Of a stretch of 64,000 nt of DNA, positions 1,561 through 19,367 are shown piece by piece. The DNA is from an uncultured Acidimicrobiales bacterium (GTDB lineage Bacteria > Actinomycetota > Acidimicrobiia > Acidimicrobiales > UBA10347), in NCBI GenBank assembly GCA_937991435.1, contig CALKPY010000028.1:15924-79923 (forward strand), read 5' to 3'. The stretch's first letter is position 1; each line of letters opens with the position of its first letter. A program made the translations under genes and the position numbers. A model generated the notes under the pieces. It ran no database searches. It had not been told where the DNA came from and saw nothing but the letters and a program-made list of their open reading frames with translations.

Positions 1561-4140
1561 TTGATAATTCGCCTCGTCAAAGATCTGCTTCCCTTTCAAG
1601 GACCAATCCTTGTTGGCGTCGCGGTCGACCTGCTGTCGGGAACCGACCGGTCGCTCTATGGCCTTGACCTGACGCCAAACGACACGCGCTCGATCGTGAT
1701 CATCGCCATCGGCATGGGTCTGCTGGCGATCGCCAAGGTTGTGATCGGGTACATGCACACCATCTCGTCGGCTCTTCTTGGCCGCCAAATGGTCGAGGCA
1801 GCTCGGCGGGATATGGCCGAAGCCACCATGCAAATGACGCTCGACGAGCGGCGGCGGTTCAACAGCGGCGACCTGCTCGATCGGTCGTTGGCTGACTCGA
1901 AGGGTCTGCGCAGCTTTGTGCAGAACGTCGTGATCCGGCTCGTCTCCAACACCTTGCGAGCGATCTATCCGGTGACGCTTATGTTCCTCATCGACCCGAT
2001 CATGGCATTGGTCGTTCTCGCTGTGATCCCCTTGCAGTCCGGGTTCAGTGGGCTACTCCAACGGCGACTGCACCGCCAAACCCGGGCAGCTCGCATGCGC
2101 GAAGCCGCTCATACGTCAGCAGTCAAGGAGTCAATCGACGGTTGGAACTCGGTCATATCAGTCGGCGGTCAAGACTGGGTCACCACTGAGCTCAAAGCCT
2201 CAGCCTCGGCTGCTGAAGACGCGAAGATCGAAAAGAAGCACACCACCGCCCAGATCAGCGCGGTCATCAACTTGTGCACCAGTTTCGGCATCGCTGCCTG
2301 TTACGCGATCGGCGGCTGGCGCATCATCAACTCGGGCATTATCGGCAACGACACGGCAACGATCTCTGGCGCACTCACACTCGGCACCTTGACGACCTTT
2401 ATTGGCGTAGCTAAGAAAACGTATGCGCCGTTCCAGGCCTACACCAAGATCGTCAGCTCCTACCGAACCGGAATCGTCAACCTGGAACGCATCAGCGAAG
2501 TCCTCGATGCCCCAATGCAGGACCCTCGACCGAACGGGCCCGTGCTGAATCTCACTGACGGGAACATCGATATTGACGACGTTTCGTTCCGCTATGACGC
2601 CGAGGCAACTCGAGTGTTGTCAGGGCTCACCGGAAGAATCCCCGGCCGGGCCTTGACCGTTATCAGCGGGCCAAGCGGTACGGGAAAGACCACACTGTTA
2701 CGCATGCTTATGGGTCTTGACGTACCCGAGAGTGGCACGATCAGCATCGATGGGCAAGACATCAACACGGCTCGTTTGTCGAGCGTGCGATCGACCATGG
2801 CGCTCGTGCCTCAGGAACCGATGTTGTTCACTGGCACGCTCGGTGAGAATCTGCTGTTCGGCAACCCTTCAGCCTCGACCGAAAAATTGCTCGACGCGTG
2901 CCACAAGGCTGGACTGCTCGAACTCGTTCGAGAACTCCCCAAAGGACTCGACACTGATGTAGGCAGCGGCCGCCACATGCTCTCGGGCGGACAGCTGCGT
3001 CGTATGGCGATCGCCCGAGCTCTCCTGCGCAACCCCGGTGTGTTGTTGCTCGACGAACCAACGACGGGCCTTGACCAGCTTCGCAGCGAACAGGTTCTTG
3101 ACACCCTTCGCTCCATCTCTGCCGAGACCACGGTGATCATGGTGAGTCACCGACGCGACCCCCTGGCTGCCTCGGATCATCACTTCATCCTCGCCGACGG
3201 AAGTTGGACTGCCGGTGCCGCGGGCCCCGCTACAGCCGTTAGGCACGGGGCCGAACCTTTGGCATCGACCATTGACGGTTCCGATCACAGCACCTACGCA
3301 CGGGTCACCGAACCACTATCTTCACCCGCGGCGTCGCACGCTGCGGTGGCGGCGAACGGTGCAGTCGGCGCTGTAGCGACAAATGGCGCAGGTCAGGTCG
3401 CTGCGCGAGCAGTAGCCGCCGCCAACGCGCCATCCGTACCGGCTCGAATTGGCACCCACGTCGGTCATCGTGTCATCGGGCTTTCGGCAATGGGCCGGGC
3501 AATAACGTTGAACTCCATCGACCGGGACAACACCACGACAAGCCTGGTGCTGGTGGGCGGACATCGTGCTGAAATCGATCATCTTCGGGACTTCGCTCCG
3601 CGGTTCCTTGCCGCGGTGGCTCCGATCGACAGCATTGCAGTAGGACTTGCGGCAATCGACAACCTGAATCCAGACGGCGCATGGACCGACGATGGGCGCA
3701 CTGTGCTCGGCATCGACCCATCCGCTGATCATCACCGACGGGCGGCCACCGAGACGTTGCTACTGCATCGCACGGTCGCCGAACACAGCGCTGCGCTCGT
3801 GATCGACGTCGGACATGACCCTCGCCCGAGCGACGGCTCGGCCGATGTGCGCGTCACGATTAGACATGGTTCAAACAGCGAGTCGGTCGCGTGGTTGGGC
3901 CAGCTCGCAAGCGATGTCGAACGTCGTCTTGCCGTTTCACGATTCAGCTTCGACGTCAAGCTCGAGGCCTGCGCAGCCGACAGTTTGACGGCCGCCCTGG
4001 GCGTACCCGTTATCGAACTGACGGCGATCAACGCACCAAGCGGTCACCAGGACGAACGGGTAACAACGGCCCTCGGCGAAGTCGGACTCGCGATCTACCG
4101 ATCGAGCGGTCTCAGCCAGCCGACGTTGGCAAGACCCTGA
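1561..4140 (+). CDS. ABC exporter (TMD-NBD half transporter) with an Ala-rich linker and a C-terminal M14/AstE-like domain
   Basis: This is ORF 1306..4140. Its first ~85 codons are low-complexity and lie in the divergent promoter region. The in-frame TTG at 1561 (LIIRLVKDLLPF...) is my preferred start, but it is uncertain. It has Walker A GPSGTGKTT, signature LSGGQLRR and Walker B LLLDEPT. A 309-aa tail follows (3211..4137). Confidence 0.85.
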   Translation: MIIRLVKDLLPFQGPILVGVAVDLLSGTDRSLYGLDLTPNDTRSIVIIAIGMGLLAIAKVVIGYMHTISSALLGRQMVEAARRDMAEATMQMTLDERRRFNSGDLLDRSLADSKGLRSFVQNVVIRLVSNTLRAIYPVTLMFLIDPIMALVVLAVIPLQSGFSGLLQRRLHRQTRAARMREAAHTSAVKESIDGWNSVISVGGQDWVTTELKASASAAEDAKIEKKHTTAQISAVINLCTSFGIAACYAIGGWRIINSGIIGNDTATISGALTLGTLTTFIGVAKKTYAPFQAYTKIVSSYRTGIVNLERISEVLDAPMQDPRPNGPVLNLTDGNIDIDDVSFRYDAEATRVLSGLTGRIPGRALTVISGPSGTGKTTLLRMLMGLDVPESGTISIDGQDINTARLSSVRSTMALVPQEPMLFTGTLGENLLFGNPSASTEKLLDACHKAGLLELVRELPKGLDTDVGSGRHMLSGGQLRRMAIARALLRNPGVLLLDEPTTGLDQLRSEQVLDTLRSISAETTVIMVSHRRDPLAASDHHFILADGSWTAGAAGPATAVRHGAEPLASTIDGSDHSTYARVTEPLSSPAASHAAVAANGAVGAVATNGAGQVAARAVAAANAPSVPARIGTHVGHRVIGLSAMGRAITLNSIDRDNTTTSLVLVGGHRAEIDHLRDFAPRFLAAVAPIDSIAVGLAAIDNLNPDGAWTDDGRTVLGIDPSADHHRRAATETLLLHRTVAEHSAALVIDVGHDPRPSDGSADVRVTIRHGSNSESVAWLGQLASDVERRLAVSRFSFDVKLEACAADSLTAALGVPVIELTAINAPSGHQDERVTTALGEVGLAIYRSSGLSQPTLARP

Positions 4141-4228
4141 CATCTTTGGTGCGCCGTATCGCCGCAGCGGGCCGACCCCGCAGGCGGCGCCCACGTCCAC
4201 GAGAGCTGGCCGCTTTCGACGCCAACCA

Positions 4229-7200
4229 TTGAAAACCAGCGGCGAACGCCGATGGGAACAGGTGTTGAGTAGCTCTCCGGCGCATGCCGATCGTCGCCTT
4301 TGGGCTGCTCTTGCCACTGCGTTCATGTGGCACGGCGGAATGTTGCTCGGCGGTAGCTACGAGCGCACGTATGACGCGTATATCCATATGTTCTTCGCAG
4401 ACCACTACGCACGCGATTGGTTTTCCACCTGGGAGACCCGTTGGTACACGGGCTTCACCATCACGAGCTATCCGCCCGGCACCCATCAGCTCATTGCGTT
4501 GCTATCAAAGATCTTCAGCCTCGAAACAGCGTTTGTTCTTGTTCAGCTAAGCGCAGTTCTGCTGCTCATAGTCGGTGTGTATCGGTTCAGCCGTATTTGG
4601 GTTGACCCGGTCTCGGCTGGCTGGGCGGCGCTACTCGCTTCGGTGTCGACGTCGCTGGCCGAGGTCGTGCACGTTTTCGGTCAGCTTCCGACCACGTTCT
4701 CATTGGCGATGCTGCTCAACACGTTGCCTTCGATCTTTGTGTGGGTTCGCGACGGTTCGCGTGGCGATCTCGTGCTCGCGTGCGCAGGACTTGCCGCAAC
4801 AACCGCGGCGCACCACGTGACGACACTCTTTGGCGCTGTGTTCTTCGTCGGCCCGGTGGTCGCCACCGCGCTACTCGACCAGTTTCGCTGCCCGCACCCC
4901 GACGAGAAGCCAGGACATTGCGCCCGCGTTGACAGGTATTCGCTATGGCCCGCAATCGCCCGCCGCAGCCGTCGCGTACTTCCGGGCCTGGTTCGTGCTG
5001 GCGTCATCGGTACAGCCGCGATAGCGATCTTGGTCATTGTTGTACTTCCGTACTGGTTGTGGTCAGCGAGCGACCCGATCGTGCAGATACCAATACCTCA
5101 CGCCACGCGAGACAGTTTCATCGAAAACGGAGCGGCGGGCATCGTGTTCTTCGTCGTGCCGTGGGGCCTCATGGTGCTGATGCTGCCGTTCGCGTTGATG
5201 CGGTCGGTGTTCACCCGTGCTCTTCCGCTCGCGGCGTCGGTGGCTTTGTTGTTCATCCTCGGCACCGGAGGCACCACGCCGATTCCGCGTTTGTTGTTGC
5301 GATCGGCCTTTGACATCTTGACCCTGGACCGATTCACGGTCTGGGCGACCATTGGCGTATTGCCGTTGGTCGGAGCGCTCGTGACAAGCATGACCGACGG
5401 TCGCCTCAACACGATTGCTACCTCGCTGCTCGGCCGACGAACATGGAAGGCTGTACTCCTTGGCGGAGCCTGCGGTCTGATGGTGGCCAGCGTGTTGGCT
5501 GCCAACTTTGCCCAGTTCCGTCCGCTCCAGCCCGATCGAATCGACCCCGAGCCCATCGCGGCATTTATGGACAAAGACCAGCATGACCGCTGGAGATACT
5601 TGACCTTGGGGTTCGGCGATCAGATGGCCCGAGTGGCCGCCGAGACCACGGCGACGACGGTCGACGGCAACTATCACTCCGCTCGACGATTGCCTGAACT
5701 GACAAGCCGCTCTGTCGAGCGGCTCGAGGGGGCCAAATTTCGTGGTGTCCCTGGCCTCGGTTCCCTTCAGCAATTCTTGGCTACCCCTGAGCGTTACAAC
5801 CTCAAGTTCGTTTTCTCTAACGACGTGTTCTATGACCCGCTGCTTTGGGCATCGGGGTGGCATCGACTCGATCGTTTACGCAACGGCATCGTTGTATGGG
5901 AACGTGAAGACATACCCCCGCTACCTGATTTGTTGCCGACCAAAGAGCTTCCGGACTGGCAGCGAGTCATGTGGGGCACCTTGCCGATGTCGGCGCTGGC
6001 TGCGGCTGCGCTGACTCAGCTGTGGAACTTCGTTGGTCGACCCAACCCGCAGTCAGCTCAATGGGCCGCTCGCCAGGTTCGTTCACTCGGCCCGACGCCC
6101 GTCGCCCGGATTCTGACGTGGATCGATCGACGACTCGCACGTGCTGCCCAACGCGCGTCTTCAGGGCACCCACGCCACCGCTGGTATCGAGACGTCACCG
6201 AGACCTATCTGCAGCGATTGGACAGACTTGCCGAGCGCCGTGCGCCGAGTCTCCGACTGCGTCTCGCGTGCTGTGCACTGATAGGCGCCCTCGGTTTCGG
6301 GCTATGGCAGATGACAAGCGCGGACCTCGGGGCGACCGATGCCGAAGCAACCGTCGAGTCCTGGTACGACGATCTTGATTTCCAACGGTTTAGCGACGCA
6401 TGGAACCGGCTCGACCCGCAGGCCCGACCACCGTTTGACCAGTTCAGCCTTGAGCGCTCGGTTGTTGACGGCCTTGTCGCCGGTTACAGCAAGCTCGATC
6501 GTGTCGACACGGCGCTGGTCTCATCGACTTCAGACCGAGCAACCGTGCGGGCCAGCCTCAGCTATGTCACGTCGCTCACTCGCTACGACACCGTCGTCGA
6601 CCATCAGCTACGTCGAGTTGACGGACAATGGTGGATTGTTCCGTTCCAAAGCGACGTGTCAACAACACCCGACCAGTTCTCGCGCTCGACCGAAGTGACC
6701 TATCTCAGTCAGGGACGCAGACAGGTGACAGCTGATCAAACCGGTTTCGGCGATGTCTTAGACCGCCCTCGGATCGAGACGCTGAGTGCGCAGGCCGTGT
6801 ACCGAGACGGCCGATTCGCCGTCGTCGGCGAAATTACCAATCTCGATGTCGACCCGGCCGACATTACGGTGACCGCTCGCTTTCTTGGCGAAGACGGGGA
6901 GACGCTCGTCGAACACAATGCAGCGCTCGTCACCGCTAGCAAAGTTCTACCCAGAGAAACCGTTCCGTTTCGAATCGATATCGAAGCGATCGCTGGAGCA
7001 GCCGATGCCAAAGACGAAGCCGCTGGCGAGTTTCAGCCAGATCTGTTTGCCACACCTGACCTGGGTCCACGCGACATCGCCAACATCGAACTCATCACCA
7101 AAGCGGTGGTCACAGGCCGAGATCTTCAACGGGACCTTCAGCCACAGCACCTGCGGGTCGTCGTCGACGACACGGTTACGTTGCTCGGCGAGCTTCGCAA

Positions 7201-7513
7201 TGATGGCGTCGAGACTGCAACCGTTCCGCAGGTGCTCATCACCTTGATCGATGAAGAGGGCAACGTAGGTTGGGTTGACTCTGTATGGATCGACCAGGCG
7301 ATTCGCCCGCAGCGAATCGGTTCATTCAGCGTCGAGCTGACCAAACCCGATGTGCTCACCGCTCTCGATGTCCCGCTGATTGTGTACGGCAACGGCATCA
7401 CCCGGTCGGAGGGAAACCCGTTCAGTAGCGACGCCGTTATCGAGTTACCTCCCGAAAGTGGCTGGGCCTCGGCCCGCATCACGGTTCAGTCGTTCTATCG
7501 AGCATCGTCATGA
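4229..7513 (+). CDS. Large polytopic membrane protein, GT-C-fold-like (PTPS-related/PMT-like, tentative), with a C-terminal extracytoplasmic NTF2-like domain plus two beta-sandwich repeats
   Basis: The ORF is 1094 aa, starting at TTG 4229 (alternative GTG 4262). The first ~560 aa contain many hydrophobic helices, with a loop YDAYIHMFFADHY...WETRWYTGFTITSYPPG after the first helix. The soluble tail has an NTF2-like part ending ...RRVDGQWWIVPF and two repeats (DGRFAVVGEITNLD..., VTLLGELRNDG...). Confidence 0.75.
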   Translation: MKTSGERRWEQVLSSSPAHADRRLWAALATAFMWHGGMLLGGSYERTYDAYIHMFFADHYARDWFSTWETRWYTGFTITSYPPGTHQLIALLSKIFSLETAFVLVQLSAVLLLIVGVYRFSRIWVDPVSAGWAALLASVSTSLAEVVHVFGQLPTTFSLAMLLNTLPSIFVWVRDGSRGDLVLACAGLAATTAAHHVTTLFGAVFFVGPVVATALLDQFRCPHPDEKPGHCARVDRYSLWPAIARRSRRVLPGLVRAGVIGTAAIAILVIVVLPYWLWSASDPIVQIPIPHATRDSFIENGAAGIVFFVVPWGLMVLMLPFALMRSVFTRALPLAASVALLFILGTGGTTPIPRLLLRSAFDILTLDRFTVWATIGVLPLVGALVTSMTDGRLNTIATSLLGRRTWKAVLLGGACGLMVASVLAANFAQFRPLQPDRIDPEPIAAFMDKDQHDRWRYLTLGFGDQMARVAAETTATTVDGNYHSARRLPELTSRSVERLEGAKFRGVPGLGSLQQFLATPERYNLKFVFSNDVFYDPLLWASGWHRLDRLRNGIVVWEREDIPPLPDLLPTKELPDWQRVMWGTLPMSALAAAALTQLWNFVGRPNPQSAQWAARQVRSLGPTPVARILTWIDRRLARAAQRASSGHPRHRWYRDVTETYLQRLDRLAERRAPSLRLRLACCALIGALGFGLWQMTSADLGATDAEATVESWYDDLDFQRFSDAWNRLDPQARPPFDQFSLERSVVDGLVAGYSKLDRVDTALVSSTSDRATVRASLSYVTSLTRYDTVVDHQLRRVDGQWWIVPFQSDVSTTPDQFSRSTEVTYLSQGRRQVTADQTGFGDVLDRPRIETLSAQAVYRDGRFAVVGEITNLDVDPADITVTARFLGEDGETLVEHNAALVTASKVLPRETVPFRIDIEAIAGAADAKDEAAGEFQPDLFATPDLGPRDIANIELITKAVVTGRDLQRDLQPQHLRVVVDDTVTLLGELRNDGVETATVPQVLITLIDEEGNVGWVDSVWIDQAIRPQRIGSFSVELTKPDVLTALDVPLIVYGNGITRSEGNPFSSDAVIELPPESGWASARITVQSFYRASS

Positions 7514-11502: not shown

Positions 11503-11507
11503 TCGAC

Positions 11508-12419
11508 GTGACCAAACGTGACGACGGCGATGATGCCGATCAGCGTCTAGAGCGCTTAGAGCGTCGTCTCAAACGGGCTCAGAGCGCTCGGCTCGAAGCC
11601 GAGACTATTGCCGACCGACGCATGCGCGAGCTCTACCTCAGCAACCTGGAACTCGACGAACGCGTCGCGGCCAGAACAAGGGACCTTGAGCTGGCGGTAG
11701 CCGAGCTCGAATCCACCTCGTCGGCCGCCGCAGGGTTCCTTGCGAACCTGAGCCACGAAATGCGCACGCCGCTCAATGGCATTATCGGCATGCTCGAGTT
11801 GCTGCCCAGCCATGTCAACGGCGAGCAAGGCCGTCAATACCTCGACACTGCGCTCGAATCGAGTCGCACTCTCAACGCCCTCGTCTCGCGACTTATCAGC
11901 GCCGCTGAGGTCGGAACCACGAGCGCCCACGACCGATCACCGTGGCCACTTGGCGTCATCGCGGAGTCGATCGACGATTCGTGGAGGTTGCCGTGCCTGT
12001 CCAAAGGACAGCTTCTCACTATTCGGGTGGTCGGCTCTGACGGCACGACTGTCAACGTTCCTTCGGTACTGCTGCTGCAGACGGTTCGGGAATTGATGAG
12101 CAACGTCGTCACGCACGCAGATGCCGGTGTCGTGACGATCGACATACGACTTGAACCGCCGACCGACACAGAACCAGCACCGATGCTGCACCTAACGATC
12201 ACTGATCCGGGACCAGGCTTTGACGTCACGCACGAGGCCGACCTACTCGAATCTGTGGCGCGCGCCGACACCACATCGACACGTGCAGGTGGCGGGCTCG
12301 GCTTGGGGCTCTATCTCGCTCACGACAGCGTGCGGCGGTCCGGGGGTCGAATGGAGATCGTGAGCGGTACAGGACAACCAACCGCGATTGATATACGAAT
12401 CCCAGCCACAAACAGCTGA
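11508..12419 (+). CDS. Cytoplasmic histidine kinase (coiled coil-DHp-CA), candidate H-NOX-associated kinase
   Basis: The GTG start lies 5 nt after the H-NOX stop. The N-terminus is a charged coiled coil (LERLERRLKRAQSARLEAE...). The H-box is SHEMRTPLNGIIGMLELL, and CA motifs are DPGPGF and GGGLGLGLYL. There is no TM or sensor domain. Confidence 0.88.
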   Translation: MTKRDDGDDADQRLERLERRLKRAQSARLEAETIADRRMRELYLSNLELDERVAARTRDLELAVAELESTSSAAAGFLANLSHEMRTPLNGIIGMLELLPSHVNGEQGRQYLDTALESSRTLNALVSRLISAAEVGTTSAHDRSPWPLGVIAESIDDSWRLPCLSKGQLLTIRVVGSDGTTVNVPSVLLLQTVRELMSNVVTHADAGVVTIDIRLEPPTDTEPAPMLHLTITDPGPGFDVTHEADLLESVARADTTSTRAGGGLGLGLYLAHDSVRRSGGRMEIVSGTGQPTAIDIRIPATNS

Positions 12420-12479
12420 TCGACCCTCAAAATTGGGGGCAATGTATCAACTTGTGCTGTTAGCTGCCGAAAGTAACAA

Positions 12480-13694
12480 GTGTCCGTACCGAACCAACTG
12501 CCCCGTCGAGTCGGCCTGATTACCGCATTCCCGCCCGGTCGAAACAGTCTCAACGAATTTGGCTTCCACCTCGTGAGCCATATGGCCGAGAACCCGCAAC
12601 TCGACCGCGTGGTTGTGTTTGCCGATGAGACCGACGCCGGTCCCCCGCAGCCGATTCCCGGCACCGAGGCTGTCGTCTGCTGGAAGTTCAACGATCTAAC
12701 GAATCCACTTCGTCTGATTCGAGCAGTACGACGATCCAAGGTCGACGCGGTTCTCGTCAACCTGCAATTCGCAACCTTTGGCGACAGCAAGGTCGCCGGC
12801 GGTCTGGGACTTCTGGCTCCCGCCCTACTCAAGCGAATGGGCATTCCCACCGGGGTGATCTTGCACAATCTGGTCGACAACGTCGATATGCAAGATGCCG
12901 GATTCGCATCGAGCAAGTTGATGGCCAAGATCATGAACACCGCCGGTGAAATGCTGACCCGCACGATTCTGCAAGCCGACTACGTCGCCCTCACGATTCC
13001 TCGCTACGTCGAGTTACTCCGGGACAAGTACGGCGCTACTAACGCACTGCTGACGCCCCACGGGAGCTTTGAGGAGATCGACGAACCGTCATTCGGTGTT
13101 CCTGCCGACGGCCCACGTCGCATTTTGGCATTTGGCAAATTCGGCACCTATAAGACCGTCGACATTCTCGTCGAGGCCTACCGCCTGCTCATCGAACGGG
13201 GCTACCACGACCTTGAACTCGTGATTGCCGGGACCGACAGCCCGAACTCACCCGGCTATCTCGCCAATGTCGCGAGCGGTTGCGCCGACCTCGAATCTGT
13301 CACGTTCACCGGATACGTCGAAGAAGCGGACGTAGCGGGGCTGTTCGAGACTTCGGCAATCACCGCGTTTCCGTATACGAGCACGACTGGGTCTTCAGGC
13401 GTCTTGCACCAAGCCGGTTCGTATGGCCGCGCTGCTGTGCTTCCTCAGATCGGCGACTTCGTTGAGGTCATCGAAGAAGAAGGCTTTGTGGGCGTCTACT
13501 TTGAGCCGGGAAGCGCCAAAGGGTTGGCTGACGCGCTGGCCGCGGCGCTCGATGACCCCGAAATGATTGCGGAACACGGTCGACGCAACTATCTGGCCTC
13601 GACGGGTATCCCCATGAGTGAAGTCATCGACTGGCACCTGCTGCATCTTGGCGAAGCGATGAGTTCTCAAGTTCGCACGACCGCGACCCCATGA
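12480..13694 (+). CDS. Glycosyltransferase, GT4-type (GT-B fold)
   Basis: The 404-aa ORF has a GTG start. The C-terminal half carries the typical GT4 pattern (TSTTGSSGVLHQAGSYGRAAVLPQIGDFVEVIEEEG). Confidence 0.8.
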   Translation: MSVPNQLPRRVGLITAFPPGRNSLNEFGFHLVSHMAENPQLDRVVVFADETDAGPPQPIPGTEAVVCWKFNDLTNPLRLIRAVRRSKVDAVLVNLQFATFGDSKVAGGLGLLAPALLKRMGIPTGVILHNLVDNVDMQDAGFASSKLMAKIMNTAGEMLTRTILQADYVALTIPRYVELLRDKYGATNALLTPHGSFEEIDEPSFGVPADGPRRILAFGKFGTYKTVDILVEAYRLLIERGYHDLELVIAGTDSPNSPGYLANVASGCADLESVTFTGYVEEADVAGLFETSAITAFPYTSTTGSSGVLHQAGSYGRAAVLPQIGDFVEVIEEEGFVGVYFEPGSAKGLADALAAALDDPEMIAEHGRRNYLASTGIPMSEVIDWHLLHLGEAMSSQVRTTATP

Positions 13695-15028
13695 CGGTGA
13701 ACACCCGCGACGACGGAACGGAAACCGCTCCCGGGTCAGCGGCGCCAACGACAGACGCCACTGGATCACGGGCGTTGATGGCCGGCGGGTCGGTGCTGGC
13801 ACTGGCAATGTTTGCGGCCAACGGCGGCAATTACCTGCTCAACGTCGTGCTCGGACGATGGCTTGAACCAGCAGAGTTCGCCGATGCGAATCTGATGGTC
13901 ACCCTCATGCTGCTCGTCACTGCAATCGCGGTCAGCCTGCAGCTGATTGGCGCCAAGTTCACCGGGCAATATGAAATCAGCGGCACCGACGATCAGACCC
14001 GTGCCCTCGCTCGGGGCCTTAGCCGACTGGCGATCGGCTCAGGCGTTGTCCTCGCCGCGCTCTTGGCTGTAGGCGCCCCCGTTTGGCAGAACCTGTTCAA
14101 CACCGAATCATCGTGGCCGTTTGTGATCCTTGGCATCGGCATGCCCGCGTATCTTCTTCAGGCCGTCGGGCGAGGCGTGTTACAAGGGCAACTCGCCTTT
14201 TCGAAACTGGCGTCGACGTTCATCTCCGAAATGGTCGTGCGAGTCGTTCTGGGAGTGGCTCTCGTCGCGATGGGTTATGGCGTGATCGGCGCTACAGCAG
14301 CGCTCACTGCGTCGTTCGTTGCTACCTGGTTAGCCGTGCGTCGAGCTCTCGGCTGGAAGAAATCAACCGTGCAAGCTGATGTTCCCGCGGCGGTCCGTTC
14401 GTACGCAGGTCCCGTCGGCGTGCTGCTGCTCGGGCAAATCATCATCAACAACGGTGATGTACTCATCTCGAAGAACGGACTCGACCCAGAGACGGCTGGC
14501 ATCTACGCCGCAGTGGCTCTCGTCGGCCGAGCGGTGTTCTTCCTCAGCTGGTCAGTAGCGACGACCTTGTTTCCCGCAGCCGCTCAACGCAACGAAGCTG
14601 GCGAAGACTCCAGTGGCCTGCTGCATGCAGGCCTGGGTGTTGTCGCAGTACTCGGTGTCGTCGCAGTGCTCGCCGCTCACTTTCTCGGTGGAACGGTTCT
14701 GGGTCGAGTCTTTGGACCCGAGTACGCCGGCGTTTCGGGGCACCTGAGCCGATACGCACTCGCAACTGCGGTCTTTGCCATGGCAAACCTCGTCGTGTCG
14801 CATCACCTTGCACTTGGTCGGCTGCGTGAAGCGCTGATCATGGTGGCCGGAGCGGTCGTTCAGACCGTGCTACTTCTCACCGCCGCCCAGACAATCGAAG
14901 CTCTTATCGAAGCGCAGGTGTATGCCATGGCCATCTTGTTCATCGCTGTTGCTGCGAGCCACGCTGATCGGCTACGCGCTGGCCACCCGAAATTCACCGA
15001 CCCCACGAACTCGAGAATGACATCGTGA
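13691..15028 (+). CDS. Polysaccharide/oligosaccharide flippase (MOP superfamily, Wzx-like)
   Basis: The start overlaps the upstream stop as ATGA. The 445-aa protein is very hydrophobic with many TM helices. The N-terminal pattern ...GNYLLNVVLGRWLEPAEFADANLMV is typical of polysaccharide biosynthesis flippases. Confidence 0.75.
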   Translation: MTVNTRDDGTETAPGSAAPTTDATGSRALMAGGSVLALAMFAANGGNYLLNVVLGRWLEPAEFADANLMVTLMLLVTAIAVSLQLIGAKFTGQYEISGTDDQTRALARGLSRLAIGSGVVLAALLAVGAPVWQNLFNTESSWPFVILGIGMPAYLLQAVGRGVLQGQLAFSKLASTFISEMVVRVVLGVALVAMGYGVIGATAALTASFVATWLAVRRALGWKKSTVQADVPAAVRSYAGPVGVLLLGQIIINNGDVLISKNGLDPETAGIYAAVALVGRAVFFLSWSVATTLFPAAAQRNEAGEDSSGLLHAGLGVVAVLGVVAVLAAHFLGGTVLGRVFGPEYAGVSGHLSRYALATAVFAMANLVVSHHLALGRLREALIMVAGAVVQTVLLLTAAQTIEALIEAQVYAMAILFIAVAASHADRLRAGHPKFTDPTNSRMTS

Positions 15029-15810
15029 CCGCACCCACGTCTTCATCGACCTATCGCTCATGGGCAGACACGCCGAACACCGGTCCAATTGCTTGGTCGG
15101 TCGTGATACCGACATACAACGAATCAGAGCGTGTCGTTCCGACCATTGGAGCCATTGCCGCACATCTAAGTTCGCTCGGCTCCCCATGGGAACTCATCGT
15201 CGCTGACGACGGTTCAACCGACGACACTGTCGAAGTGCTCAACGCACTTGGGCTTGCGAACTTGCAGGTACTGGTCGCCGAACAAAATGGCGGCAAAGGA
15301 AGCGCAGTCCGCCGTGGCGTGCTGGCAGCGCAAGGCGATGTAATCCTCTTCGCCGACGCAGACCAAAGCACCCCGATCGAACAATTCGCATCGCTGCTGT
15401 CGTGCATTGAAGGTGGCGCCGACGTGGCCATTGGTTCGCGAGCAGCTGCAGGCGCACACGTGTCCAACAAGTCGATGGCGCGCAAGGTGTTTAGCAAAGG
15501 CCTGAATCTGCTGGTGCGATTCGGGTTCGGCGTGCATCACGCCGATACGCAATGCGGCTTCAAGATGTTCACCACCACGGCTGGGCGTCAGCTGTTCCAG
15601 AGGCAGCTGATCGACCAGTTCTCCTTCGATCTCGAAATCTTGTACCTGGCGAAGAAATTCGGCATGCGGGTCGACGAAGTTCCTGTTGAATGGATCGATG
15701 CACCCGGATCGACTGTCGACCCAGCAAAGGTCGCAGTCGAATTCTTGAAAGACATGGCAGTCATTCGCTGGAACGACCTGCGTGGCCGCTATCGCCGCGA
15801 CAATCGATGA
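15025..15810 (+). CDS. GT2 glycosyltransferase, polyprenyl-phosphate sugar synthase-like (DPM/DPG synthase family)
   Basis: The start overlaps the upstream stop as GTGA. Motifs are WSVVIPTYNESERV, ADDGSTDDT, GKGSAVRRG and FADADQSTP (DxD). Confidence 0.85.
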   Translation: MTAPTSSSTYRSWADTPNTGPIAWSVVIPTYNESERVVPTIGAIAAHLSSLGSPWELIVADDGSTDDTVEVLNALGLANLQVLVAEQNGGKGSAVRRGVLAAQGDVILFADADQSTPIEQFASLLSCIEGGADVAIGSRAAAGAHVSNKSMARKVFSKGLNLLVRFGFGVHHADTQCGFKMFTTTAGRQLFQRQLIDQFSFDLEILYLAKKFGMRVDEVPVEWIDAPGSTVDPAKVAVEFLKDMAVIRWNDLRGRYRRDNR

Positions 15811-15901
15811 GGCGCACCGAAGCACAGCCGCCACCGCTCCTGCATTTGCCAAAACAGCCCACAACAAACGTGATCAGGAAAGAATCTGGCAGGATCCAAC
15901 A

Positions 15902-16219
15902 ATGAATATCGAGACTCAGCACCATGACAACGACAGCGCTGGCCTTGTGCTGTCTGGGCGCTTCGATGCCTTCGAGACCGATGCCTTTCGCGCAACGATT
16001 GACCCGCTGTTGGCGAGCGAGTCGACGGCCAAGGTGAGGGTGACAATGGCCGACGTCAACTTCATTGACTCATCGGGGCTCGCTGAACTGGTGAGGTCAA
16101 TGAAGCGGGCACGCGAGGCCGGCGGCGATATCGAGCTGCATAACCCGTCAGACCCGGTGCGCGTCATTCTCGAGCTGACTCGGCTCGACCTGGCCTTTAC
16201 CATCACATCTGCCGAGTGA
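15902..16219 (+). CDS. STAS-domain anti-sigma-factor antagonist-like protein
   Basis: ORF 15782..16219 is trimmed to the ATG at 15902, with AGGA upstream. It carries the motif NFIDSSGLAELV, including the conserved phosphorylatable Ser context (DSSG). Confidence 0.8.
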   Translation: MNIETQHHDNDSAGLVLSGRFDAFETDAFRATIDPLLASESTAKVRVTMADVNFIDSSGLAELVRSMKRAREAGGDIELHNPSDPVRVILELTRLDLAFTITSAE

Positions 16220-17820
16220 CGACGGCCGATCCACCGTTCGATGCCCTGACGTCGGTCACCGGCGCGTTGGTCGACGCGAACGATCGGCTGCTTGAGCTCA
16301 TCACGCTTACCGGCACCGCCTCTACGTCACTTGACGAGGGCGAATTGCTCGACACTCTCATCGAACCCACGATCGCGCTCTTACATCTCGACGGTTGCCG
16401 ATTGTCGGCCAAGATCGAGCGAACCTGGGGCACCCCGCCGACCGTCGACCTTGAGTCGACCGCCCATCAATGGAAGTCAAACCGCAACGTCGCCGACGAA
16501 TCGATCGAAATGGTCGTTTGGCGCACAGCTGACCCATTTGGCACCGCCGACGCCAAGCTGCTCGAAGCGATTGCCAACCTTGCAGGCAACGCCATCGGCA
16601 TGGCTCGCATGCACGCCGAGGGGTTAGCCCAGGCTGCCATCGGCCAAGAACATGCCGCTGCCGCGAAATTGGCATCGGCAGCGCTTCCCGATCCTCTGAT
16701 TCCTCCGACCGTCCCCCACGCCACGATTTGGGCCGCCGCTCGACCGGCACGCACCACCGGCGGCGACCTGTTCGTCTGGGCTGAACTCGACAACCAGTTG
16801 TGGTTTGCGGTCGGCGATGTTTCGGGCAAGGGACTTCCGGCCGCAGTTCTGATGACGGTGTGCACAACATCGATTGAGACCGCTATTCAACGTCACGGTG
16901 AGCAGGGGCCTGTCGCAGTCCTCGACTCGGTGACCCGGTCAACGCACCGACGTTTGTCAGATGCGGGCATGTTCCTCACGATCGCTCTCGGGCGTTTCTG
17001 CCCAACGACACGCACCGTAGAGATGGCCAACCACGGGCATAGTCCGATCGTATTTCGACAAGCGCACGAGGTCCGAAGAATCTCGGCCACCGCTCCCCCA
17101 ATTGGTGTGCTTGTCGACGCCCGCGCTGAGCTTGAAAGCTTTGTGGTGCAACCCCACGACCTTCTCGTCATCGCCACCGACGGACTCACCGAACAAATAG
17201 ATGCAGCCGGGAACTTGTTTGGGGAATCGCATTTCGACGCGCTCGTCGCATCGTTGGAACTCAGTGACGCAGATCATGTCGGGACATCGATACTCGCCAC
17301 CGTCGACACTCATCGAGGCACGACAGCTCAGTCTGACGACCAGACCCTGATGGTGATCGGCTTCCATTGTGAACGAACACGGCCCCTTTTGATTGATGCG
17401 ACGAACCAAGGCGTACGAGCACTTGGTCCGTGGCTTTCTGAACACCTCGCAATCCTCGCCAACGGTCGATTCGAATCCCGTCTCGGCGAAATCGAATTGG
17501 CGGTGCACGAGATTGCGATGAACATCGTCGATCATGCGTTGGCCGATGCTCCAAGCTCTAGGTTCGCGTTAACACTGACCGTTGACGACGACGAGCTCGT
17601 GGCCGAATTTCGCGACCGGGGATCTGCGTTTGGGGTTGCGCCGTCGCGCCCCGACCCGGAACACCCGCAGGTCGGCGGCTACGGACTCATGATTGTTGAG
17701 CAGCTTGCGTCTCGCATCGAGCGCAGCCGTATCGACGATCTCAACATTTCTCGACTGTGGTTTTCGAGCCAAGGCTCTATTCCCGCCGCTTCAGGCCGAA
17801 AGGAAGCACATGACGCTTGA
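16216..17820 (+). CDS. GAF-like / PP2C (SpoIIE) phosphatase / RsbW-type serine kinase (GHKL) fusion protein
   Basis: The start overlaps the upstream stop as GTGA. The PP2C core shows GGDLFVW...WFAVGDVSGKGLPAAVLM...IATDGLTE...SDDQTLMVIGF. The C-terminal kinase shows HEIAMNIVDHA, FRDRGSAFG and GGYGLMIVEQL. Confidence 0.85.
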   Translation: MTTADPPFDALTSVTGALVDANDRLLELITLTGTASTSLDEGELLDTLIEPTIALLHLDGCRLSAKIERTWGTPPTVDLESTAHQWKSNRNVADESIEMVVWRTADPFGTADAKLLEAIANLAGNAIGMARMHAEGLAQAAIGQEHAAAAKLASAALPDPLIPPTVPHATIWAAARPARTTGGDLFVWAELDNQLWFAVGDVSGKGLPAAVLMTVCTTSIETAIQRHGEQGPVAVLDSVTRSTHRRLSDAGMFLTIALGRFCPTTRTVEMANHGHSPIVFRQAHEVRRISATAPPIGVLVDARAELESFVVQPHDLLVIATDGLTEQIDAAGNLFGESHFDALVASLELSDADHVGTSILATVDTHRGTTAQSDDQTLMVIGFHCERTRPLLIDATNQGVRALGPWLSEHLAILANGRFESRLGEIELAVHEIAMNIVDHALADAPSSRFALTLTVDDDELVAEFRDRGSAFGVAPSRPDPEHPQVGGYGLMIVEQLASRIERSRIDDLNISRLWFSSQGSIPAASGRKEAHDA

Positions 17821-18148
17821 GACCTCTTCGCACGAGATTCGCATTGACACGATCGTGTTGGGTGACCGGCTCGACGCGCTACGGGCGGTGGAATTGCGTG
17901 AACAGATCACCGCGGCGGTCGCCGGCGGCACCGTTCGCATCATCGTCGATTTGTCGACCACCCAATTTGTCGACAGTGCAGGGCTTGCAGCGCTGGCCAA
18001 AGGCATGAAGGACTGTCGCTCAGGCGGCGGCGATCTGAGGGTTGTTTCGTCGCAGCACCCAGATGCCGCCCGCGTGTTCGCTCTCACGCGCTTCGATCAA
18101 GTGTTCGTGATGGCCGAATCCGCCGATGACCTGTTGCGAACCTGGTAG
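17810..18148 (+). CDS. STAS-domain anti-sigma-factor antagonist-like protein (second copy)
   Basis: ORF 17693..18148 is trimmed to the ATG at 17810, preceded by GAAAGGAAG. It overlaps the upstream gene by 11 nt. It carries the motif QFVDSAGLAALA. Confidence 0.8.
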   Translation: MTLETSSHEIRIDTIVLGDRLDALRAVELREQITAAVAGGTVRIIVDLSTTQFVDSAGLAALAKGMKDCRSGGGDLRVVSSQHPDAARVFALTRFDQVFVMAESADDLLRTW

Positions 18149-18154
18149 TCCGCA

Positions 18155-18529
18155 GTGGCTCACCTTCTCGTCATCGACGATGACCCCGTCAGCTTGCTTG
18201 TGGCTGAACATATTTTGCGCGGCGCCTCTCATGATGTCAGCACAGCAACAGGCGCACAGTCCGCGCGTGCAGCGCTGCGCGATGCCAACGCCGTGATCGA
18301 TCTCGTTGTGTGCGACGTGCATATGCCGGGCGAGTCCGGCTTCGACCTGCTCGATTCGTTGACCCGAAGCGAAACCCCAGTGCCACCTTTTCTTATGCTT
18401 ACCGGTGTTCGAGATGAGGCCGAACGAGGTAATAGCCGTGCCGATTCCGCCGCTGGCTACTTGACCAAGCCAGTTCGGTCAGAAGATCTTCTCAACGCGG
18501 TCGAGTCAATACTCCAAAGCTCGTTCTGA
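18155..18529 (+). CDS. Single-domain response regulator (CheY-like receiver only)
   Basis: The GTG start lies 6 nt after the STAS stop. Receiver motifs are LLVIDDD, DLVVCDVHMPGESG and YLTKPV. At 124 aa it has no output domain. Confidence 0.85.
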   Translation: MAHLLVIDDDPVSLLVAEHILRGASHDVSTATGAQSARAALRDANAVIDLVVCDVHMPGESGFDLLDSLTRSETPVPPFLMLTGVRDEAERGNSRADSAAGYLTKPVRSEDLLNAVESILQSSF

Positions 18530-18607
18530 GTCGAGTTGCCGGGAACGGTCGCAACCCTGCTCGTCTCGGACTGTTCCCGTCTTCGATCCGCGCAGTAGCG
18601 TCACAGC

Positions 18608-19363: not shown

Positions 19364-19367
19364 TCGA

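Follow-up and report, generated by a model that had tools for sequence, protein, structure and literature searches.

A conserved gene cluster of uncultured Acidimicrobiales that may place glycan synthesis under an H-NOX gas sensor and a partner switch

Introduction

In Vibrio fischeri, the nitric oxide (NO) signal received by HnoX passes through HahK, the Hpt domain of SypF, SypE (kinase-REC-PP2C) and the STAS protein SypA to the Syp polysaccharide (PMC12369376, PMC4517449), and the STAS step acts after transcription (PMC12369376; PMC4517449; PMC3610818). In Anabaena PCC 7120, HenR (REC-PP2C) and the kinase Alr3423 switch the STAS-glycosyltransferase All4160; the phosphatase was predicted to be under histidine-kinase control, and the authors considered the arrangement cyanobacteria-specific (PMC13555669). 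The NosP-NahK/HptB/HsbR/HsbA system of Pseudomonas aeruginosa (bioRxiv 10.1101/2025.09.24.678285) also has an NO-responsive haem sensor that controls a kinase, followed by an Hpt relay to REC, PP2C and RsbW-type kinase domains and then to a STAS protein, in an operon without a sigma factor. Instead of glycan enzymes, FlgM and the diguanylate cyclase HsbD serve as outputs of this system.

Among actinobacteria, Rv1364c of Mycobacterium tuberculosis combines a sensor domain, an RsbU-type PP2C phosphatase and an RsbW-type kinase in one polypeptide. It carries a PAS domain and its own C-terminal STAS domain, and belongs to a sigma-F-linked system. In three-component glycosylation systems (GtrB/GtrA/GtrC, CsbB/GtcA/YfhO and ArnC/ArnEF/ArnT), a GT2 enzyme makes a polyprenyl-phosphate sugar, and a flippase and then an outer GT-C enzyme follow.

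Here, we compare with these systems a locus from the window, by which we mean the whole 64,000-nt stretch of DNA analysed. Its host is an uncultured marine actinobacterium of the order Acidimicrobiales, and the source sequences of both the window and its relatives are metagenome assemblies throughout.

Extent and organization of the cluster

Fourteen consecutive ORFs on the plus strand, to which all coordinates below refer, span 1306/1561-18529. The layout proposed in the first-pass annotation was reproduced in all its coordinates, including the exact 4-nt ATGA/GTGA overlaps at 7510, 8787, 9398, 10969, 13691, 15025 and 16216, an 11-nt overlap between adjoining genes (17810-17820) and three intergenic gaps (4141-4228, 12420-12479 and 15811-15901). 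Co-directionality and 4-nt overlaps alone are ordinary for high-GC operons, and the locus rises above chance because it is conserved in relatives. The gaps (60-91 nt, n=3) could hold promoters; consensus scans gave nothing above chance either way, and the gap between the histidine kinase (HK) and GT4 genes (12420-12479) was not conserved in relatives. In agreement with the annotation, which saw no DNA-binding regulator, sigma factor or GGDEF/EAL/HD-GYP protein, a Pfam domain search of the 14 proteins found no HTH, sigma, GGDEF, EAL or HD-GYP domain. Thirteen of its 14 domain calls were also upheld by Pfam, Foldseek or homology, the exception being an 'M14-like' tail proposed for gene 1.

Gene 1 (1561-4140) encodes an ABC exporter with TMD and NBD (Pfam ABC_membrane and ABC_tran) and a C-terminal tail of ~300 aa. 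Where it starts is ambiguous, since the open frame reaches back to 1306 and a GTG at 1387 would give 917 aa, equal to the length of the L169 orthologue. Searches of Pfam, NCBIfam and PDB sequences with the tail gave nothing at a cut-off as loose as E=10, and the putative M14 ligands varied among orthologues, which leaves only the motifs HRAE668, NPDG703 and DVGH749 for the M14 assignment. Full-length exporter orthologues were identified in L169 (63% identity) and L170 (58%), where three and seven unrelated genes, respectively, separate them from the GT-C gene, and none was found in the other cluster loci. Judged by this distribution, the exporter is a lineage neighbour only, and the conserved unit therefore comprises 13 genes (4229-18529) instead of the 14 genes from 1561 first proposed. 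These 13 genes, none of which encodes a transcription factor, are probably co-transcribed and form four modules: the GT-C enzyme with an Ig-like and an anchored protein; hybrid HK, H-NOX and HK; GT4, MOP flippase and GT2; and STAS, PP2C plus kinase, STAS and REC.

Genes for glycan synthesis

The first module opens with a 1094-aa protein (4229-7513) that has ~10 N-terminal TM helices, C-terminal beta-sandwich domains and >2600 homologues. It had no Pfam match and the WWDYG motif was not found in it, and D49, D58 and H59 in its first outer loop are invariant. All 20 best Foldseek PDB matches of its AF2 model (pLDDT 79.5) were GT-C enzymes, among the matches being AglB (1.5e-7), STT3, PglB, ArnT (TMt 0.49) and AftA. 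The model thus bears out the earlier description of a GT-C-like giant membrane protein and indicates a GT-C-fold glycosyltransferase of an uncharacterised family. The two membrane-anchored extracytoplasmic proteins called after it each have one N-terminal TM helix. The gene for the Ig-like protein (Big_1/Invasin_D3 by Pfam; 7510-8790; TM helix 19-37) starts with a 4-nt overlap on the GT-C gene in the window and is paired with the GT-C gene wherever the downstream region is visible, Chloroflexi included. The 204-aa protein (8787-9401; TM helix 14-32) is homologous (tblastn and blastp) to the N-terminal portion of the products of third genes that are longer in relatives, namely in L004 (517 aa), L006 (434 aa), L113 (568 aa) and the Chloroflexi loci L086 and L088, whose versions carry a GH5 domain.

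The calls of the GT4, MOP flippase and GT2 polyprenyl-phosphate sugar synthase-like genes were all confirmed by Pfam. GT4 (12480-13694) is the best-conserved cluster protein (70-80% identity in relatives), and the MOP/Wzx-type flippase (Polysacc_synt; 13691-15028) has multiple TM helices. The GT2 (15025-15810) is of the polyprenyl-phosphate glycosyltransferase type (DPMS/ArnC/GtrB-like), its best PDB match being P. furiosus DPMS (2e-19, residues 24-249), followed by ArnC and GtrB; NCBIfam matches to AglJ, ArnC and PpgS were sub-threshold. Together with the GT-C enzyme, these genes resemble the three-component glycosylation systems, but the flippase is MOP/Wzx-type instead of GtrA or ArnEF, the GT2 lacks TM helices, a GT4 is added, and the GT-C enzyme represents an undescribed ~1090-aa family paired with an Ig-like protein. 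The presence of GT4, which is fused to GT2 in some relatives (L011, L087/L110 and L102), suggests a lipid-linked di- or oligosaccharide, although any lipid-linked intermediate is a conjecture because no initiating phosphoglycosyl transferase is encoded in the cluster.

H-NOX sensor and histidine kinases

The second module contains a soluble hybrid HK (HisKA-HATPase-REC-Hpt by Pfam; 9398-10972; H19, D298 and H441), which has no TM helix and no sensor domain of its own, a stand-alone H-NOX haem sensor (10969-11502), and a soluble HK with a coiled-coil N-terminus and no receiver (Pfam; 11508-12419; H83), which lies directly downstream of H-NOX as in hnoX-hnoK operons. The H-NOX call proved robust: the protein scored 127 bits against Pfam HNOB (cut-off 25.5 bits), its haem residues are intact, H102, P115 and Y131-x-S133-x-R135 are present, and key residues are invariant across 35 homologues. 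PDB matches included 6ocv (5.8e-28) and S. oneidensis H-NOX (2kii).

The distal pocket has Leu at position 140 (no distal Tyr) and Val at position 9, as read from an alignment with the T. tengcongensis sequence anchored on Y131-S133-R135 and G143-L144-I145, in place of the Tyr140/Trp9 hydrogen-bond network of O2-binding H-NOX proteins. Also absent from the clade of the window's H-NOX are the cysteines seen in related H-NOX proteins such as P0061, P0079 and P0114, which are implicated in haem-independent redox sensing. Both features make it very unlikely that the sensor reads O2, CO or redox state instead of NO and adjusts the envelope to oxygen tension, even though H-NOX proteins bind several diatomic gases, some of them respond to oxidation (PMC12329717), and for the analogous switch of Anabaena the authors suggest that oxygen is the signal.

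The input module varies among relatives. In L077, the triad consists of the second type of HK (11508-12419), H-NOX and a separate REC-Hpt protein; L091 keeps both kinases and lacks H-NOX; a different 933-aa HK-REC-Hpt replaces the triad in L096; and L092 has neither H-NOX nor a replacement hybrid HK. H-NOX is one of several interchangeable inputs, and an accessory one, since L091 does without it and just 5 of the 36 loci anchored on GT4 have it.

Partner switch genes

The fourth module starts with a STAS protein (Pfam; 15902-16219) whose phosphorylatable S57 lies in DSSG and whose D-S site coincides with that of RsbV (6m36) in an alignment. The next gene (16216-17820) encodes a 534-aa polypeptide with a reduced GAF domain, a SpoIIE-type PP2C phosphatase and an RsbW-type serine kinase. 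The GAF-PP2C-kinase call holds, PP2C and kinase directly by Pfam (SpoIIE and HATPase_c_2) and GAF indirectly by transitive homology, residues 11-135 aligning to the Pfam-GAF region of homologue P0309. The catalytic residues D184, D201, D322, D374 and D375 are invariant, and the best sequence and fold match is the RsbU plus RsbW part of Rv1364c (3ke6; phmmer 4.8e-9; Foldseek 6.6e-21 for an AF2 model with pLDDT 88.8), to which no H-NOX, REC or glycan genes are linked. In the window and L008 one gene encodes both phosphatase and kinase; most relatives have two separate genes. A second STAS protein (Pfam; 17810-18148; phosphorylatable S56 in DSAG) and a single-domain REC (Pfam; 18155-18529; D9, D10, D54, T83 and K105) complete the module. 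The REC ends the STAS-PP2C-kinase-STAS block in relatives, also in those without H-NOX (L091, L092 and L096), and is likely to be the end point of the phosphorelay.

The phosphorylatable serine was kept in 27 of 27 STAS genes found with PP2C and kinase, compared with 6 of 14 found without them. Retention of this serine is tied to the presence of PP2C and kinase.

Conservation of the cluster in relatives

The modules recur together in ~16 Acidimicrobiales contigs and in at least five gene orders. The g05-g14 block is fully colinear in L002-L010, L090, L093, L169 and L170 (H-NOX 49-77% identical). The order in L011, L087/L110 and L104 is GT-C, Big, 204, GT2-GT4 fusion, two STAS, MOP, HK, H-NOX and HK; that in L077 is GT4, GT2, STAS, PP2C, kinase, STAS, REC, REC-Hpt, H-NOX and HK; and in L108 the genes for REC, GT2, GT4 and MOP follow ~5 kb downstream of the H-NOX triad. 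Fusions and fissions also join cluster partners (GT2-GT4 and PP2C-kinase). Lack of synteny between signalling and glycosylation genes had been named beforehand as grounds for rejecting the proposed cluster; these genes were syntenic in many relatives, in several gene orders, and the proposal thus stood. A functional relationship is suggested because the linkage survives rearrangement of gene order.

Alternatively, independent operons (GT-C trio; H-NOX and kinases; GT4-MOP-GT2; partner switch) might lie side by side through shared descent in one lineage, in which case H-NOX would signal to response regulators encoded elsewhere and other kinases would feed the single REC. The 60-91 nt gaps and the loss of H-NOX in L091 would fit this idea, and so would the modules that occur separately: the H-NOX/HK/HK triad alone in L048, glycosyltransferase genes with a partner switch but no H-NOX in L092 and L096, and the GT-C, Big and GH5 cassette alone in Chloroflexi (L086 and L088). 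However, H-NOX and the GT/STAS genes stay together in at least five gene orders at H-NOX identities from 44% to 100%, and translational coupling in the window crosses module borders (the overlap at 9398 couples the 204-aa gene to the hybrid HK, and only 6 nt separate the second STAS gene from REC). Moreover, every partner-switch block ends in a single REC and therefore needs a kinase with an Hpt domain, and no such kinase lies nearby except the hybrid one of the H-NOX triad or, in L096, its replacement. Mere juxtaposition is accordingly improbable.

A census within 8 kb of 36 loci anchored on the cluster's GT4 family (raw locus counts, shared ancestry included) found STAS in 29 of them, with or without H-NOX, PP2C or kinase, GT2 in 28, MOP in 25, PP2C plus kinase in 7 and H-NOX in 5. 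STAS was found in 10 of 69 H-NOX-anchored loci, mostly those with this same cluster. The deepest link in the cluster is that of STAS with this GT4 family.

These counts also bear on a classical partner switch, in which the kinase would act as anti-sigma factor on an unlinked sigma factor, STAS being the anti-anti-sigma factor, control transcriptional, and the glycan genes mere members or neighbours of the regulon. The HATPase_c_2 kinase domain with its sub-threshold RsbW and RsbA matches, Rv1364c as the nearest structure, and the ECF sigma genes of L002 (2.5 kb downstream of the block) and of the distant soil locus L159 (1.2 kb upstream of its STAS gene) are compatible with it. On the other hand, no conserved sigma or anti-sigma gene lies in or beside the cluster (window, L004, L006, L008, L090, L091, L169 and L170), 22 of the 29 STAS-positive loci are without any kinase and STAS is still linked to the GT4/GT2 pair there, and many kinase-less STAS proteins have lost the phospho-serine. 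Such linkage and serine loss are hard to square with STAS proteins that do no more than titrate an anti-sigma kinase, and we consider the classical scheme unlikely.

Discussion

Starting from direct observations (domain identities and catalytic residues, the fold of the GT-C protein, synteny and fusions, and the tie of the STAS serine to PP2C/kinase), we propose, with a probability of roughly 0.6, a route from NO and H-NOX through the kinases, Hpt, REC, PP2C/kinase and STAS to post-translational control of glycan synthesis. The input would be the stand-alone NO-type H-NOX between two soluble HKs without sensor domains. We infer that a ligand, presumably NO, on its haem alters, and most likely inhibits, autophosphorylation of a partner kinase, as in HnoX/HnoK and HnoX/HahK. 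Phosphate may then move from His to Asp to His inside the hybrid kinase (H19, D298 and Hpt H441) and from there reach D54 in the single REC, whose phosphorylation state could tip the balance between PP2C and RsbW-type kinase in the GAF-PP2C-kinase protein and so set phosphorylation of S57 and S56 in the two STAS proteins. A STAS protein, unphosphorylated or phosphorylated, would bind a component of the co-encoded glycan pathway, not an anti-sigma factor, and turn the pathway on or off at the protein level. On the cytoplasmic side, the DPMS/ArnC-type GT2 and the GT4 of this pathway might make a sugar or oligosaccharide linked to polyprenyl phosphate, which the MOP protein might flip; the 1094-aa GT-C enzyme, together with the Ig-like and the anchored protein, might then transfer it to an extracytoplasmic acceptor, for which cell-envelope glycan, exopolysaccharide or protein are candidates. 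Post-translational output onto the co-encoded glycan machinery, which the annotation had called plausible, is the best-supported reading of the genes, given that no transcription factor is encoded and that STAS lies near the GT4 family in 29 of 36 loci.

The annotation knew of no described system of this composition; the logic was in fact known from V. fischeri and Anabaena, whereas the novelty lies in wiring within one operon, in an actinobacterial host and in a GT-C payload. As in V. fischeri, an NO-binding H-NOX would govern an adjoining hybrid kinase (PMC12369376; PMC4517449; PMC3610818), an Hpt domain would act through a receiver, an RsbW-type kinase and PP2C on STAS phosphorylation, and STAS is encoded among glycosyltransferase and export genes. 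However, hnoX-hahK and syp lie on separate replicons in V. fischeri and everything is in one block in the window; SypE is one kinase-REC-PP2C protein, whereas the REC is separate here and the order is GAF-PP2C-kinase; and transcription there is also driven by the sigma-54 activator SypG. The window further has two STAS paralogues and two kinases, and its payload is GT2, GT4, MOP and a GT-C enzyme in Actinomycetota, compared with a Wzx/Wzy-type 18-gene locus in a Gammaproteobacterium.

The Anabaena switch is similar in that a partner-switch-like kinase and phosphatase acting on STAS control a polysaccharide-synthesis enzyme directly and not a sigma factor (PMC13555669). There, STAS is fused to a 'bacterial sugar transferase', the genes are scattered, and sensor kinase and signal are unknown, whereas the window has free-standing STAS proteins beside GT2/GT4 and an identified, co-encoded sensor. 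The P. aeruginosa system differs in using NosP instead of H-NOX, a separate Hpt protein, and REC, PP2C and kinase fused in HsbR.

Taken together, the cluster may be regarded as a variant, complete in itself, of a circuit whose parts are known separately from V. fischeri, and its conserved block suggests gas-controlled, protein-level regulation of the cell surface in these uncultured Acidimicrobiales.

Organization and extent of the gene cluster

ORF mapping of the window revealed 14 consecutive plus-strand genes running from 1306/1561 to 18529. Seven junctions are ATGA/GTGA overlaps (at 7510, 8787, 9398, 10969, 13691, 15025 and 16216), one is an 11-nt overlap (17810-17820), and only three gaps in the run exceed 20 nt (4141-4228, 12420-12479 and 15811-15901). 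This layout is exactly the one described in the first-pass annotation. In gene order, the first half contains the Pfam domains ABC_membrane and ABC_tran, Big_1/Invasin_D3, HisKA-HATPase-REC-Hpt, HNOB and HisKA-HATPase, and the second half GT4, Polysacc_synt (MOP), GT2, STAS, SpoIIE with HATPase_c_2, STAS and REC. Among the domain calls made previously, the sole failure was an M14-like tail assigned to the first gene. It had also been claimed that the cluster encodes no DNA-binding regulator, sigma factor or GGDEF/EAL/HD-GYP protein, and none of these domains was found by Pfam in the 14 proteins. The two proteins encoded after the 1094-aa gene, an Ig-like protein (7510-8790) and a 204-aa protein (8787-9401), each have one N-terminal TM helix, which is consistent with the membrane anchoring proposed for them.

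The G+C content is approximately 0.60 and flat throughout the window. An Rfam scan of the whole window identified no family, and therefore no riboswitch (for example, for c-di-GMP) ahead of the cluster. In a promoter and terminator scan of 1000-19600 the counts equalled the shuffled expectation and the three gaps were empty, and an alignment of six loci showed no conserved element in the gap between the second histidine kinase and GT4.

Comparison with loci of relatives (L-numbers below) showed that the real, conserved and modular cluster consists of 13 genes (4229-18529, plus strand) and not of the 14 originally proposed. The ABC exporter (1561-4140) falls outside: among cluster loci its orthologues occur only in the two closest relatives, where three (L169) and seven (L170) unrelated genes lie between it and the GT-C gene. 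It is a lineage neighbour paired with a divergent SdiA-regulated-family gene on the minus strand (348-4140 in the window for the pair, L169:3986-7727 and L170:1136-5091). Its C-terminal tail is cytoplasmic, comprises about 300 aa with HRAE, NPDG and DVGH motifs in the window, and matched no known domain. The idea that this tail is an M14 metallocarboxypeptidase had to be abandoned: no match was obtained in Pfam, NCBIfam or PDB (phmmer) at E up to 10, and the HxxE...H ligands are not kept in its own orthologues (the window has both HRAE668 and H752, but L170 lacks E671, and neither L169 nor L170 retains H752). Another ABC-exporter ORF of the window (25838-27877) opens, in its longest reading, with a PDDRP peptide repeated three times (DRQPDDRPPDDRPPDDRPPDG). 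This repeat lies upstream of the likely true start, and in that reading the ORF runs into the end of the ABC-exporter gene before it (24208-25968). At the other end of the cluster, an SDR gene (18608-19363) was considered as a further member and not counted; its product is 34% identical to an SDR abutting the GT-C gene in L169 and is absent elsewhere.

The predicted H-NOX sensor and adjacent histidine kinases

The product of 10969-11502 matched Pfam PF07700 (HNOB) with 127.3 bits (cut-off 25.5) over 161 of 163 profile positions, and its best PDB relatives are bacterial H-NOX proteins (6ocv, 5.8e-28; 2kii, 2.9e-19). The proximal H102, the distorting P115 and the Y-x-S-x-R propionate-binding motif (Y131, S133 and R135) are invariant in 35 homologues, so that the earlier H-NOX call holds with its haem residues intact. 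Altogether 725 homologues were detected at E<1e-10, and the nearest genome matches were all uncultured Acidimicrobiales MAGs. In an alignment anchored on the YxSxR and GLI motifs, with T. tengcongensis H-NOX for reference, positions 140 and 9 are Leu and Val. These are the positions of the O2-binding Tyr/Trp network of the T. tengcongensis protein; as this network is absent here, the window protein is predicted to be an NO-type sensor. Some related H-NOX proteins (P0061, P0079, P0103, P0109 and P0114) have a Cys after YxSxR and a C-x-x-R-G-D-x-x-C stretch and were also matched by Pfam V4R; their cysteines are missing from the window's clade (alignment A1, columns 140-175).

Kinase genes flank hnoX on both sides, with a 4-nt overlap upstream (hybrid kinase, 9398-10972) and a 5-nt gap downstream (second kinase, 11508-12419). 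HisKA begins at residue 12 of the former and residue 76 of the latter, and both lack TM helices. The same combination of adjacency and sensor-less soluble kinases characterizes the HnoX/HnoK, HnoX/HahK and HnoX/HqsK operons. All relay residues are present: H19, D298 and H441 in the hybrid kinase, H83 in the second kinase, and D54, T83 and K105 in the single receiver (REC, 18155-18529).

The putative partner-switch module

Both STAS proteins contain a phosphorylatable Ser in a D-S-x-G-L motif, S57 in STAS1 (15902-16219; DSSGL) and S56 in STAS2 (17810-18148; DSAGL), which aligns with the site of RsbV (6m36). Between them, the 534-aa protein encoded at 16216-17820 matched SpoIIE (129.7 bits) and HATPase_c_2 (56.4 bits) in Pfam. 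Its PP2C metal-binding residues (D184, D201, D322, D374 and D375) are invariant in homologues, and its kinase domain has an N-box (HEIAMN) and G-boxes (DRGSAF and GGYGL). The best match was Mycobacterium tuberculosis Rv1364c, which has RsbU and RsbW domains (4.8e-9 by sequence and 6.6e-21 by fold), and the SiaA fold was also matched. Thus, the PP2C-kinase fusion previously noted is well founded. The GAF domain assigned to the same protein has indirect support: its N-terminal 135 residues gave no direct Pfam GAF match, but residues 11-135 align to 20-170 of P0309, a 32%-identical homologue in which Pfam detects GAF_3/GAF at 40-164, and a reduced GAF is therefore likely. The AF2 model predicts two helices, four strands and one long helix for this region.

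The occurrence of the two enzymes was compared with the state of the STAS serine. The phospho-Ser is kept in 27 of 27 STAS genes from loci that have both PP2C and kinase, compared with 6 of 14 from loci (with at least 4 kb of flank) that lack both (Fisher p = 3e-5, kinship ignored). In many of the latter, for example, L087/L110, L101, L104 and L106-L109, Ala, Leu, Gln or Glu stands in its place. The STAS phospho-serine therefore tracks the enzymes that would use it.

What the switch acts on has two candidate answers. The kinase domain could hold a sigma factor encoded elsewhere, as in a switch of the classical type, and ECF sigma genes do occur near L002 and L159; against this, Pfam detected no sigma or anti-sigma domain in the 14 proteins or in conserved neighbours. 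The other answer, a target among the glycan genes, is taken up below with the proposed circuit.

Glycan enzymes and a family of GT-C proteins

The GT2 protein is closest in PDB to DPMS (5mlz, 2e-19, residues 24-249, the whole catalytic domain), followed by ArnC (6.9e-16) and GtrB (2.2e-10), and it has no C-terminal TM helices. Its earlier description as polyprenyl-phosphate sugar synthase-like agrees with these relatives, but the NCBIfam equivalog models AglJ, ArnC and PpgS all scored far below their cut-offs. More distant versions of the cluster encode GT2 and GT4 as a single protein of about 650 aa with GT2 at the N terminus (L011:3632-5590; L087:15253-17208, equivalent to L110:8768-10930; and L102:9236-11263), which implies that the two enzymes would act in consecutive steps. 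The GT4 gene of L170 (18319-19468) was recovered by tblastn in two pieces (residues 5-99 and 129-404) and is called as a 241-aa product. The gene is a frameshifted pseudogene or has been misassembled.

The 1094-aa protein (4229-7513) had no sequence match in Pfam or PDB and only a weak FxLYD-domain match (Pfam, NCBIfam and PDB phmmer). An AF2 model built from a 40-sequence alignment (pLDDT 79.5, pTM 0.77) was compared with PDB by Foldseek, and the 20 best hits were all GT-C enzymes (AglB, STT3, PglB, ArnT and AftA), with E values from 1.5e-7 (AglB) to 2.6e-4, a probability of 1.00 and a TMt of 0.49 for ArnT. In GT-C enzymes, catalytic acidic residues lie just after the first TM helix. The corresponding first extracytoplasmic loop of the window protein contains T47, D49, A50, H53, D58 and H59, directly after the first TM helix and invariant in 40 homologues. 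The initial suggestion of a GT-C-like giant membrane protein is therefore strengthened by both fold and acidic residues. A canonical oligosaccharyltransferase of the STT3/AglB/PglB type was ruled out by the missing WWDYG motif, as neither WWD nor W.DYG was found in the window protein or the 40 homologues aligned with it. On the predicted structure, the protein has a GT-C fold and is not a canonical oligosaccharyltransferase.

This family, for which there is no Pfam model, gave 2682 matches of about 1090 aa in Acidimicrobiia and Chloroflexi. Together with the Ig-like and 204-aa proteins it forms a GT-C trio. In the window, L090, L091, L169 and L170 the trio is located upstream in the same orientation; it is divergent in L004-L008 and L093, and absent within 10 kb in L002. 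Two Chloroflexi loci (L086:10001-16292 and L088:10001-16350) contain a three-gene cassette of the GT-C protein, an Ig-like protein and a GH5 protein of about 580 aa (cellulase/mannosidase-type), with no H-NOX, STAS, GT2/GT4 or other signalling genes nearby. The 204-aa protein of the window resembles the N-terminal part of the product of the cassette's third gene. Our analysis thus brings to notice a GT-C family that is large, uncharacterised and constantly partnered by an Ig-like protein.

Conservation and modularity among relatives

Loci were collected as exact-protein neighbourhoods, 80 H-NOX-anchored genome loci and 80 GT4-anchored metagenome loci, and were mapped by tblastn, blastp and locus-built HMMs; all of the sequences come from metagenomes. 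A ten-gene core (HK-REC-Hpt, H-NOX, HK, GT4, MOP, GT2, STAS, PP2C(+kinase), STAS and REC) is colinear in L002-L010, L090, L093, L169 and L170, with identities to the window of 49-77% for H-NOX and 64-81% for GT4. Other orders were also observed: GT-C trio, fused GT2-GT4, two STAS, MOP and HK-HNOX-HK in L011, L087/L110 and L104; GT4, GT2, STAS, PP2C, kinase, STAS, REC, REC-Hpt, HNOX and HK in L077; and an H-NOX triad about 5 kb upstream of REC, GT2, GT4 and MOP in L108. Hence the signalling and glycan genes, whose synteny in relatives the first-pass annotation had proposed as a check, are found together both colinearly and in rearranged form. PP2C and RsbW-type kinase form one polypeptide in the window and in L008:15311-16891, and two overlapping genes in L002, L004, L006, L009, L010, L077, L090 and L091. 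Such fusions and fissions (GT2-GT4 and PP2C-kinase) indicate that the partners are tied together.

The input of the cluster is interchangeable. In the metagenome contig L091 (7394-9898; GT4 78% identical) the cluster is colinear with that of the window and the H-NOX gene is missing between the two kinases, the hybrid kinase ending at 8947 and the second starting at 8960; L091 thus resembles a naturally arisen deletion of H-NOX. L096 has a different HK-REC-Hpt protein, which comprises 933 aa and has an N-terminal region of its own, both are missing from L092, and the H-NOX triad was found alone in L048. The H-NOX-less GT4-MOP-GT2-STAS-PP2C-kinase-STAS-REC block of L092 is preceded, 1.1 kb upstream, by a gene for a GGDEF-EAL protein (L092:6499-8874), with a PAC2-family gene on the other strand between them.

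In the GT4-anchored set, 36 loci comprised 8 kb or more. STAS was present within 8 kb of GT4 in 29 of these, GT2 in 28, MOP in 25, REC in 18, GT-C in 9, PP2C and kinase in 7 each and H-NOX in 5. Among 69 H-NOX-anchored loci, STAS occurred in 10, mostly ones with the window's cluster. The loci counted share ancestry. The association between STAS and the window's GT4 family is therefore the deepest in the cluster. A distant soil version (L159:5582-13099; GT4 37% identical) contains, in this order, ECF sigma, LbH-repeat, STAS, uncharacterised, thymidylate-kinase-like, GT2 and GT4 genes, and the opposite strand carries a GH71/GH99-like gene; a sigma factor is thus found in the neighbourhood of the STAS/GT pair.

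A proposed circuit and its relation to known systems

From the domain identities, residues, folds, synteny, fusions and serine/enzyme correlation, we infer that an H-NOX-fed phosphorelay acts on a partner switch, and that this switch regulates the synthesis of an envelope glycan at the protein level, a reading to which we assign a probability of roughly 0.6. The most economical reading is a modular one, with a glycan-assembly core (GT2, GT4, MOP and often the GT-C trio) that nearly always comes with a STAS protein. One branch may have placed its STAS proteins under a PP2C/RsbW-kinase pair and a single receiver, an arrangement that calls for an Hpt-containing kinase; for the window's lineage this would be the sensor-less hybrid kinase of the H-NOX triad. 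Binding of NO to the haem would change kinase autophosphorylation, presumably by inhibition if HnoK, HahK and HqsK are a guide, and less (or more) phosphate would reach D54 of REC via H441. REC would then shift the PP2C/kinase balance and, with it, phosphorylation of the STAS proteins at S57 and S56, and STAS binding to a glycan-pathway protein would switch synthesis. In that pathway, a sugar would be loaded onto polyprenyl phosphate by GT2 and extended by GT4. MOP would act as the flippase for the product, which the GT-C enzyme would then transfer on the outer side of the membrane. A more specific version is tentative, and we consider it rather improbable as a whole: the two free STAS proteins, gated by phosphorylation, might directly regulate a GT2/GT4 pair whose product is a polyprenyl-monophosphate-linked glycan used by an OST-like, always Ig-like-paired GT-C family.

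The closest known system is HnoX/Syp of Vibrio fischeri, in which NO-HnoX inhibits HahK (PMC12369376) and HahK signals via the Hpt domain of SypF to SypG and SypE, a kinase-REC-PP2C protein (PMC12369376, PMC4517449, PMC3610818). The phosphorylation state of SypA, a STAS protein, is set by SypE, and SypA acts post-transcription on Syp polysaccharide production (PMC4517449, PMC3610818). As in the syp locus, a STAS gene lies among glycosyltransferase and export genes, STAS1 following directly after GT4-MOP-GT2. SypE combines an N-terminal RsbW kinase, a central REC and a C-terminal PP2C in one protein, whereas the window encodes a GAF-PP2C-kinase protein and a separate 124-aa REC. In Anabaena, a 2026 study found that the partner-switch-like pair HenR and Alr3423 acts directly on a STAS-glycosyltransferase; its authors consider such direct control of glycan enzymes by a partner switch to be specific to the cyanobacterial lineage, and the sensor kinase has not yet been identified there (PMC13555669). 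The NosP-NahK-HptB-HsbR-HsbA pathway of Pseudomonas aeruginosa is a further analogue. Our literature search for an H-NOX gene in a STAS/glycosyltransferase neighbourhood found no description. The logic of the circuit suggested in the first-pass annotation is therefore sound, but its claim that no described system is known is too strong in view of the V. fischeri and Anabaena circuits. What is new is that sensor, relay, switch and payload are encoded in a single block with no transcription factor; that REC is separate, PP2C and kinase form an Rv1364c-type fusion, and there are two STAS paralogues and two kinases; and that the host is actinobacterial and the payload is centred on an undescribed GT-C family.

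Implications

To our knowledge, H-NOX proteins have so far been described as acting on c-di-GMP enzymes, on quorum-sensing relays or on DNA-binding regulators, and nearly always in Proteobacteria. The compact predicted operon reported here brings together, in an actinobacterium and without a transcription factor, the complete predicted route from gas sensing to glycan enzymes. As far as we know, the target of polysaccharide-controlling STAS proteins such as SypA has been elusive for more than 10 years. The tight linkage of STAS to GT4/GT2, which persists without the kinase/phosphatase and without the phospho-serine, gives concrete candidates for a SypA-type target. If the STAS proteins do act directly, the cluster would be a self-contained circuit from NO to cell-surface glycosylation with no transcriptional step, and would point to the long-sought type of target of SypA-like proteins. 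Our data suggest that direct partner-switch control of glycan enzymes is more widespread, extending to Actinomycetota, Chloroflexi-related contigs and soil lineages. Control of surface chemistry by NO could also matter for the attachment and particle association of marine Acidimicrobiia, a group that is both abundant and uncultured.
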